Positions 13,192-13,965 of a DNA stretch of 17,048 bases are shown one piece after another. Below the pieces are notes generated by a model. The model saw nothing but the letters and a program-made list of their open reading frames with translations, searched no databases and was not told the origin of the DNA. The position numbers and the translations under genes were made by a program. Every line of letters begins with the position of its first letter. Position 1 is the first letter of the stretch. This DNA comes from a virus (taxonomy: Duplodnaviria; Heunggongvirae; Uroviricota; Caudoviricetes), in the IMG/VR virus record IMGVR_UViG_2713896834_000007, positions 1 through 17,048 of that record. One strand, 5' to 3'.

Positions 13192-13965
13192 TCAAAAATT
13201 AGGTGAGTAACGGACCGGGGACATAGCTCCTTTTTTTCTTAATTCATCTGGTATTTTTTTTCCAAGATAAAGATTTGCTATTTCAGGTGGGGCTTCTCGA
13301 CCTTCAAAACCATAGCGCGAACTTTGTGTTGCCTCAAAGTCAGGATCCTCGTCCCAGTATTTCAACGAAGGGAAATTTTCACGTGTTGATTTGAGCCATT
13401 TATCAGCAATGAAAACCCCTCGAACGATCCCCCTTACAGTAGCAAGAATGATTTCTGCTTGGCTGGCGCGAGAGACATTAATGCGCCAGCTAAATCGAAC
13501 CGCATCATAAAGCTCTGAATCCTTTGCACTTCTGTTAACGGATATCATTAATGCTTTATGATGAAATGTTATGGTTTCGGGCTGATATGTTGCTATCAAC
13601 TCTTTGACATGCGCGGCGCCGAATTCATTGCTGCCAGCACCATTCATGATATTCGTTAACCCAGGGTAGGCATCAATAAGTGCTGCTTCAACTTCGTACG
13701 CCGTCTTTTCATCAGTCATTCCGTGTCGATGGATGACATGGATAACTTCAAGTCCTGCTAACCTTATTTCTCTAATTTGCTTTAGCTTGTTGCTCAGTAA
13801 CTCGTCATCATCAGTCGCTGCCACTTCACCGCGCATATGGGCAAATACGCGGTTACCTTTGCCTTTCCCTACATAGAAGGTGCTTCCGTCCCTCGGATCA
13901 ATCAATCGGTATACATACCAGCCAAGGTGTTCAATTACTCCAGAAGGAAACTCAGTAATATCCAT
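13192..13965 (-). CDS. GIY-YIG nuclease-domain protein with an unassigned ~150 aa C-terminal region (cargo gene)
   Basis: 257 aa; N-terminal [29 protein letters not shown] ... [10 protein letters not shown] ... NIMNG matches the GIY-(10-11)-YIG spacing with conserved Arg, His, Glu and Asn (compare I-TevI GIYQIKNTLNNKVYVGSAKDFEKRWKRHF); C-terminal half has no motif I can assign. Confidence 0.6.

Follow-up and report, generated by a model that had tools for sequence, protein, structure and literature searches.

The stretch of DNA analysed here, referred to as the window, is 17,048 nucleotides long and carries a deleted prophage. At its left end lie proA (positions 1-1254), the gene for tRNA-Thr(CGT), thrW (1369-1444), and a tyrosine integrase gene (1459-2622, minus strand); from this order it follows that thrW is the prophage attachment site. 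Towards the right end, the tail-fibre assembly gene tfa (12538-13122; PF02413, E = 5.7e-45) is met by a convergent gene of 257 codons plus stop (13192-13965, minus strand), the product of which is identified below as the nuclease CMoRE, also named PD-T4-3. Beyond this gene, an M.EcoRII/Dcm-type C5 cytosine methyltransferase of 477 amino acids is encoded on the plus strand (14372-15805 according to PGAP, in a reading frame that is open from 14330; PF00145, E = 4.7e-78; PF18284; PRK10458/Dcm, 927 bits). The window ends with the gene for an EcoRII-type type II restriction endonuclease of 402 amino acids on the minus strand (15840-17048; PF09217, PF09019; 808 bits to EcoRII, PDB entry 1NA6, over residues 1-401). 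These matches agree with the first-pass annotation, which had placed the nuclease gene between tfa and an EcoRII-like restriction-modification (R-M) pair.

E. coli KKa014 has an intact thrW prophage of 44 kb; compared with it, the window prophage has suffered a clean internal deletion of 27,473 bp, with its junction at 11571/11572 and a microhomology of only 2 bp (TT). As a result, the 5' part of a DUF968 gene is joined to what remains of the tail-fibre gene, its last 915 bp, in one open reading frame at 11040-12538 (start at 11040 according to PGAP; a GTG start is located at 11034). Lost are the genes for the Q antiterminator, lysis, terminase, head and tail; kept beside the deletion are the early/immunity region and the defence cargo, consisting of CMoRE and the EcoRII R-M pair. 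The identical deletion is found in NCBI assembly GCA_001282335.1 (contig LJGJ01000018.1) and the arrangement is therefore a natural remnant. It is present in none of the complete RefSeq E. coli genomes. The defence cargo has thus outlived the phage that brought it.

The reading frame of the nuclease gene, which starts with ATG, was confirmed, and its product is exactly the protein of RefSeq entry WP_000355482.1. The amino-terminal GIY-YIG domain (13636-13965, minus strand) is delimited by a Pfam match, by the residue map and by invariance in an alignment of phage homologues. The Pfam match is to the LEM-3-like GIY-YIG family PF22945 (residues 28-110, E = 2.2e-14), while the classic GIY-YIG model of Pfam, PF01541, stays below threshold. 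The signature reads G15-W-Y17-V-Y19, followed by F-Y31-V-G33, and is completed by R39, H43, E93 and N105. Y17/Y19, Y31, G33, R39, H43, E93 and N105 are invariant when the protein is aligned with phage homologues of 39-46% identity, so that the GIY-YIG signature (YVY...YVG with Arg, His, Glu and Asn) described in the first-pass annotation holds on alignment. R39 and E93 are probably the catalytic arginine and glutamate, a numbering that we infer from their invariance, whereas E91 varies. The published description of the enzyme (PMC12923530) names the catalytic Arg and Glu in its figures only, and the labels R39, E91, E93, N105 and H43 are absent from its text.

Between helices alpha2 and alpha3, residues D52-D53-D54-E55 form the acidic autoinhibitory loop (13801-13812, minus strand), located by sequence and assigned its function from a published mutant in which the four acidic residues are replaced (4A; PMC12923530). 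The loop reads DDDE in the window protein and in CMoRE of E. coli APEC O1, and DDDD in CMoRE of E. coli O157:H7. A flexible linker and the carboxy-terminal, modification-sensing domain, which includes Y127, take up approximately residues 111-257 (13195-13635, minus strand; the boundary is approximate). For these residues, no Pfam family is found even at E <= 10, and the only PDB matches are CMoRE chains (E = 2.4e-94). The earlier statement that the last 150 or so residues resemble nothing recognisable is thus true of the generic domain libraries, the CMoRE chains of the PDB alone matching; the authors of PMC12923530 likewise report no sequence or structural homologue of this domain. NUMOD, helix-turn-helix and zinc-finger modules were not detected by Pfam in the full protein or in its carboxy-terminal half, even at E <= 10, and neither Pfam nor NCBIfam reveals the extra domains of UvrC (UvrBC-interaction, RNase H-like endonuclease and HhH) in the protein.

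The protein as a whole belongs to a named family. The first-pass annotation, which regarded the gene as an orphan, had proposed running PADLOC on the locus, and a profile search of the defence library returns the PD-T4-3 model (PADLOC PDLC04031) with E = 7.6e-140, covering model positions 1-256 of 256. The gene is, consequently, not an orphan. In a sequence search of the PDB, CMoRE of E. coli O157:H7 (entries 9U75 and 9U8D) matches with E = 5.1e-171 and 250 of 257 residues identical (97.3%), and CMoRE of E. coli APEC O1 (entries 9U7U and 9U7Z) with E = 1.6e-150 and 219 of 257 identical (38 differences, 85.2%); both matches carry the label 'GIY-YIG domain-containing protein'. Seven substitutions set the window protein apart from that of O157:H7: T51A, E55D, Q169K, I172V, N197H, S200T and L201M. 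Five of them are in the carboxy-terminal domain, none touches a named functional residue, and E55D retains the acidic charge. All published functional residues, namely Y17, Y19, Y31, V92, L96, R80, Y127 and those of the acidic loop, are kept in the window protein. Among the PHROGs, phrog_5356 matches over the full length.

The best explanation of these data, and one that we hold with high confidence, is that the window gene is a near-identical allele of CMoRE/PD-T4-3, a named defence enzyme characterised both biochemically and structurally. Of the three roles suggested in the first-pass annotation, the one that fits is that of an anti-phage nuclease acting as a single gene, here as prophage cargo, CMoRE being known to defend alone from a construct carrying its native promoter (PMC12923530). 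The gene is, then, already known and not a new finding: the family was named in 2022 and characterised biochemically and structurally in 2025-2026. As a discovery it carries little weight: what the enzyme is, how it is built, what it cuts and which phages it stops have all been published. The lesson is one of annotation, as the gene looks like an orphan unless PADLOC, DefenseFinder or the PDB of 2026 is consulted: PGAP calls the product a 'LEM-3-like GIY-YIG domain-containing protein', the PHROGs entry is of 'unknown function', and NCBIfam has no model that matches it.

PD-T4-3 emerged from a functional selection carried out by Vassallo et al. 2022 (PMC9519451). Later papers citing that study give ECOR68 as the source of PD-T4-3 and T2, T4 and T6 as the phages against which it protects; the main text of the study mentions 'a GIY-YIG nuclease', while the string 'PD-T4-3' is missing from that text, the name being given in figures and tables only. 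A homologue from Capnocytophaga (48% identical), once purified, breaks down T4 DNA that is modified as well as Mu DNA; unmodified T4-GT7 DNA is spared, and active-site mutants of the enzyme are dead (PMC12366544). Deletion of the gene makes NILS69, a clinical or natural isolate, susceptible to phages of the Tevenvirinae (bioRxiv 10.1101/2024.12.20.629700). A 2026 study by Liu et al. (PMC12923530) renamed PD-T4-3 to CMoRE and found 274 systems in 84 genera. Expressed from its native promoter, CMoRE gives approximately 5 logs of protection against T2, T4 and T6. The defence is direct and not by abortive infection, with cells growing and surviving at an MOI above 1, host DNA untouched and T4 DNA depleted over the whole of the T4 genome (PMC12923530).

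The same study provides the molecular detail (PMC12923530). CMoRE binds and cleaves DNA containing 5hmC or 5ghmC and spares DNA containing C or 5mC. Two modified cytosines are required, the cut is CN11/N9G with 2-nt 3' overhangs, and there is no strict sequence requirement. The protein is a tetramer, and the V92S/L96S substitutions abolish both oligomerisation and defence. The active site is described as 'GIYxY-YIG', with Y17, Y19 and Y31. The loop of four acidic residues, found in most members, is autoinhibitory; the 4A mutant cuts ordinary DNA and is toxic to cells. In the carboxy-terminal domain, of which the 5hm-dCTP complex was crystallised, Y127 bonds through its main-chain oxygen to the 5-hydroxymethyl group. 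Only weak defence was obtained from the APEC O1 allele under its native promoter (PMC12923530), from which it follows that promoter strength differs between alleles.

The window gene forms a unit of its own. On the minus strand, 3' of the stop codon, the RNA folds into an intrinsic terminator (13125-13169), made up of a bulged, G+C-rich hairpin (13137-13169) and a T-run (13125-13136, UUUUUCUUUUUU). Its folding energy is -27.3 kcal/mol (z = -3.98), and none of 200 shuffled sequences folds as well, in keeping with the strong terminator noted in the first-pass annotation. A simple consensus scan found no terminator, because the stem is bulged. The terminator lies 3 nt past the point where the convergent tfa gene stops, and could be bidirectional. 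It is kept in every genomic context examined, the homology there starting at 13134. On the other side, approximately 200 bp of upstream DNA (13966-14166, minus strand) travel with the gene; they are delimited by the end of homology at 14166-14179 and presumably contain the native promoter or regulatory region. The unit common to all contexts examined thus runs from 13134 to 14166 (1,033 bp) and comprises the terminator hairpin, the gene and the upstream DNA. It holds CMoRE as its only gene and its neighbours differ between genomes; it is a self-contained, promoter-to-terminator moron.

The spacer between CMoRE and the methyltransferase gene measures 364 bp if counted to the earliest ATG in the methyltransferase reading frame and 406 bp to the start chosen by PGAP, and has a GC content of 34.9%, compared to 48% in the whole window. 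Length and composition are as expected from the first-pass description of an A/T-rich divergent promoter region of around 400 bp; the promoter itself is presumptive, a consensus scan of the spacer upstream of CMoRE having found no convincing or strong sigma-70 promoter. The spacer's inverted and direct repeats are both short and weak; we treat them as chance matches.

Of 5,426 complete E. coli genomes, 867 contain the gene together with its flanks (13100-14340), almost always on the chromosome, and the exact protein sequence is recorded on at least about 1,000 contigs. A synteny survey, also proposed in the first-pass annotation, reveals a recurrent cargo slot distal to the prophage tail-fibre genes: at each of the five further loci inspected in complete genomes, CMoRE directly follows a tail-fibre/tfa/pin module at the end of a prophage. 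What lies on its far side varies. In CFSAN064035 it is the EcoRII R-M pair and then ssrA, in KKa014 the same pair at the right end of the thrW prophage, and in strain 4588 an ImmA/HTH pair and a BRO-N gene, followed by ssrA. In two O157:H7 strains, pinE precedes CMoRE and an AraC regulator gene comes next. The locus is a clear example of type IV restriction enzymes being carried by E. coli prophages past their tail-fibre genes.

Two further observations concern the O157:H7 loci. The slot directly after pinE is occupied by mcrA, which encodes a type IV restriction enzyme of the HNH type, in the e14 prophage of K-12 (L008:5686-7180) and by CMoRE, a type IV enzyme of the GIY-YIG type, in the e14-like and Mu-like remnants of O157:H7 (L002:6418-7806 and L004:6432-7817); this prophage position appears to exchange alternative modification-dependent nucleases. 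A few kb past CMoRE, the O157:H7 strains carry a second integrase gene, followed by 'ABC-three component system' genes and an AAA ATPase gene (L002:11911-13611 and L004:11920-13620), which together are a candidate for another defence cluster near CMoRE.

The first-pass annotation had also considered that the nuclease might be an accessory of the R-M system. CMoRE would then form one three-gene system with the EcoRII methyltransferase and endonuclease, a reading to which the genomes lend some colour, as the full trio is adjacent and near-identical in 244 complete E. coli genomes, in prophages at two integration sites (thrW and ssrA). The EcoRII pair is, however, absent from approximately 620 of the 867 CMoRE-carrying E. 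coli genomes (about 72%). The pair also occurs without CMoRE in one genome (L005), in which homology starts at window position 14252, and plasmid-borne EcoRII genes in the same genome collection share approximately 80% DNA identity with the chromosomal prophage version. In loci with CMoRE only, homology ends at 14166-14179, and in loci with the R-M pair only, it begins at 14252-14290; breakpoints at 14166 and 14252 are those of two separately acquired modules. EcoRII, moreover, is a classical, self-sufficient type II system. CMoRE, for its part, defends alone in BL21 and K-12, as has been published. With the trio limited to 244 genomes and the R-M pair also found separately, an obligatory three-gene system is therefore ruled out, and we regard an accessory role of the nuclease as very unlikely. 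The EcoRII pair is the context of CMoRE, from which it is a separate, independent module.

The part of the A/T-rich spacer from 14167 to 14251 (within 13966-14372), once taken for a stretch of divergent promoter region, is the seam between these two independently mobile modules, with approximately 85 bp specific to the trio.

The two modules can coexist because 5mC, the product of M.EcoRII, is not a substrate of CMoRE, and the targets that they cover are complementary: unmodified DNA for the EcoRII pair and hmC DNA for CMoRE. T-even phages evade enzymes such as EcoRII through hypermodification of their cytosines. The trio could thus be a co-selected, two-layer cassette rather than a chance neighbourhood, EcoRII acting against phages with ordinary cytosine and CMoRE against escapees that hydroxymethylate or glucosylate it; we put this forward tentatively and consider it the less probable of the two. 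The host appears to have kept the CMoRE-EcoRII cassette after deleting 27.5 kb of phage late genes. If the linkage of the trio is selected, it would be a natural pairing of 'defence plus anti-evasion', domesticated from a prophage.

Outside prophages, full-length CMoRE homologues of 37-45% identity are encoded by lytic jumbo phages that infect Serratia, Pectobacterium, Pantoea, Klebsiella and Pseudomonas, examples being those of Serratia phage Moabite (L009:2501-3265) and Pseudomonas phage OBP (L010:2492-3253). These homologues keep Y17/Y19/Y31, R39, H43, E93, N105, Y127 and the carboxy-terminal domain and are without the four-residue acidic autoinhibitory loop, in place of which KTKDAS is found in Moabite and KTPHS in OBP. 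They are annotated as 'putative homing nuclease' or 'hypothetical'. They might be phage-against-phage weapons, aimed at competitors containing hmC.

The label 'putative homing nuclease' in these full-length homologues is one of the points in favour of a free-standing GIY-YIG homing endonuclease, which would promote its own spread by cleaving a particular target sequence in genomes without it and was another role suggested for the gene. The GIY-YIG domain itself is another, and the amino-terminal region weakly matches phrog_314, 'homing endonuclease' (E = 0.0022). Against it, the Pfam searches show no NUMOD, HTH or zinc-finger module for sequence-specific binding beside the nuclease domain, and the carboxy-terminal domain binds 5hm-dCTP in crystals. 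Cleavage depends on modification and not on sequence, and the depletion of T4 DNA is genome-wide. The 1,033-bp unit, furthermore, sits in a variable cargo slot between unrelated neighbours and neither interrupts nor abuts any single conserved target gene. A homing endonuclease is accordingly a highly improbable identity for the window protein. Equally hard to credit is a nuclease of the abortive-infection or toxin type, which would kill the host cell under infection and spare the phage genome. This is the mode of many single-gene prophage nucleases, and the toxicity of the 4A mutant might bring it to mind, but wild-type carriers of the 97%-identical O157:H7 allele grow normally under infection at an MOI above 1, with T4 DNA depleted and host DNA untouched, and the acidic loop of the window allele is intact.

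The window gene is thus best read as CMoRE, and a mechanism can be proposed for this allele on the strength of its relatives. The protein would form a tetramer, organised as a dimer of dimers, as published for the 97%- and 85%-identical proteins. Its carboxy-terminal domain would bind DNA containing 5-hydroxymethylcytosine or glucosyl-hydroxymethylcytosine and would ignore cytosine and 5mC, one dimer within the tetramer reading two modified cytosines approximately 21 bp apart. The amino-terminal GIY-YIG domains would then cut both strands (CN11/N9G, with 2-nt 3' overhangs), and the four acidic residues, forming a lid on the active site, would exclude ordinary host DNA. Incoming genomes of T-even-type phages would be degraded early in infection and the cell would survive, amounting to direct defence and not to abortive infection. 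Observed for the window gene itself are the identity of the protein, the presence of all functional residues that have been published and the autonomous layout of upstream region, gene and terminator. The allele is presumably expressed and active, although its decayed prophage is defective, with 27.5 kb deleted.

Compared to other GIY-YIG nucleases (UvrC, I-TevI and LEM-3/ANKLE1), CMoRE has an extra tyrosine (GIYxY), an acidic insertion of 15 residues and a different carboxy-terminal partner domain. Homing endonucleases of the I-TevI type sit in an intron or beside a fixed, conserved target gene, and the window gene does neither. The PvuRts1I/AbaSI family of 5hmC/5ghmC-dependent type IV enzymes shares the job of CMoRE, being specific for hmC and glucosyl-hmC and not for 5mC. 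The cleavage geometry of these enzymes, hmC N11-12 / N9-10 G with 2-nt 3' overhangs, is very similar to that of CMoRE. PvuRts1I has a different nuclease domain and an SRA-like reader, and the family gives no sequence match to the window protein in PDB searches; the resemblance would be convergent. PvuRts1I is also cited as the functional comparator of CMoRE in PMC12923530.

EcoKMcrA, from the e14 prophage of K-12, is like CMoRE a stand-alone, modification-dependent nuclease and occupies the same prophage slot, the gene order being stfE-tfaE-pinE-mcrA in K-12 e14 and tail fibre-tfaE-pinE-CMoRE in O157:H7. It differs in being an unrelated HNH nuclease that is annotated as methyl-directed, whereas CMoRE ignores 5mC. 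The CMoRE proteins of O157:H7 and APEC O1 are like the window protein in length and architecture, in the GIYxY-YIG active site, the acidic loop, Y127 and V92/L96, and in being single-gene and prophage-borne. The window and O157:H7 loci differ in their surroundings: here, CMoRE lies next to the EcoRII pair inside the deleted thrW prophage, while in O157:H7 it is preceded by pinE and followed by the AraC regulator gene.
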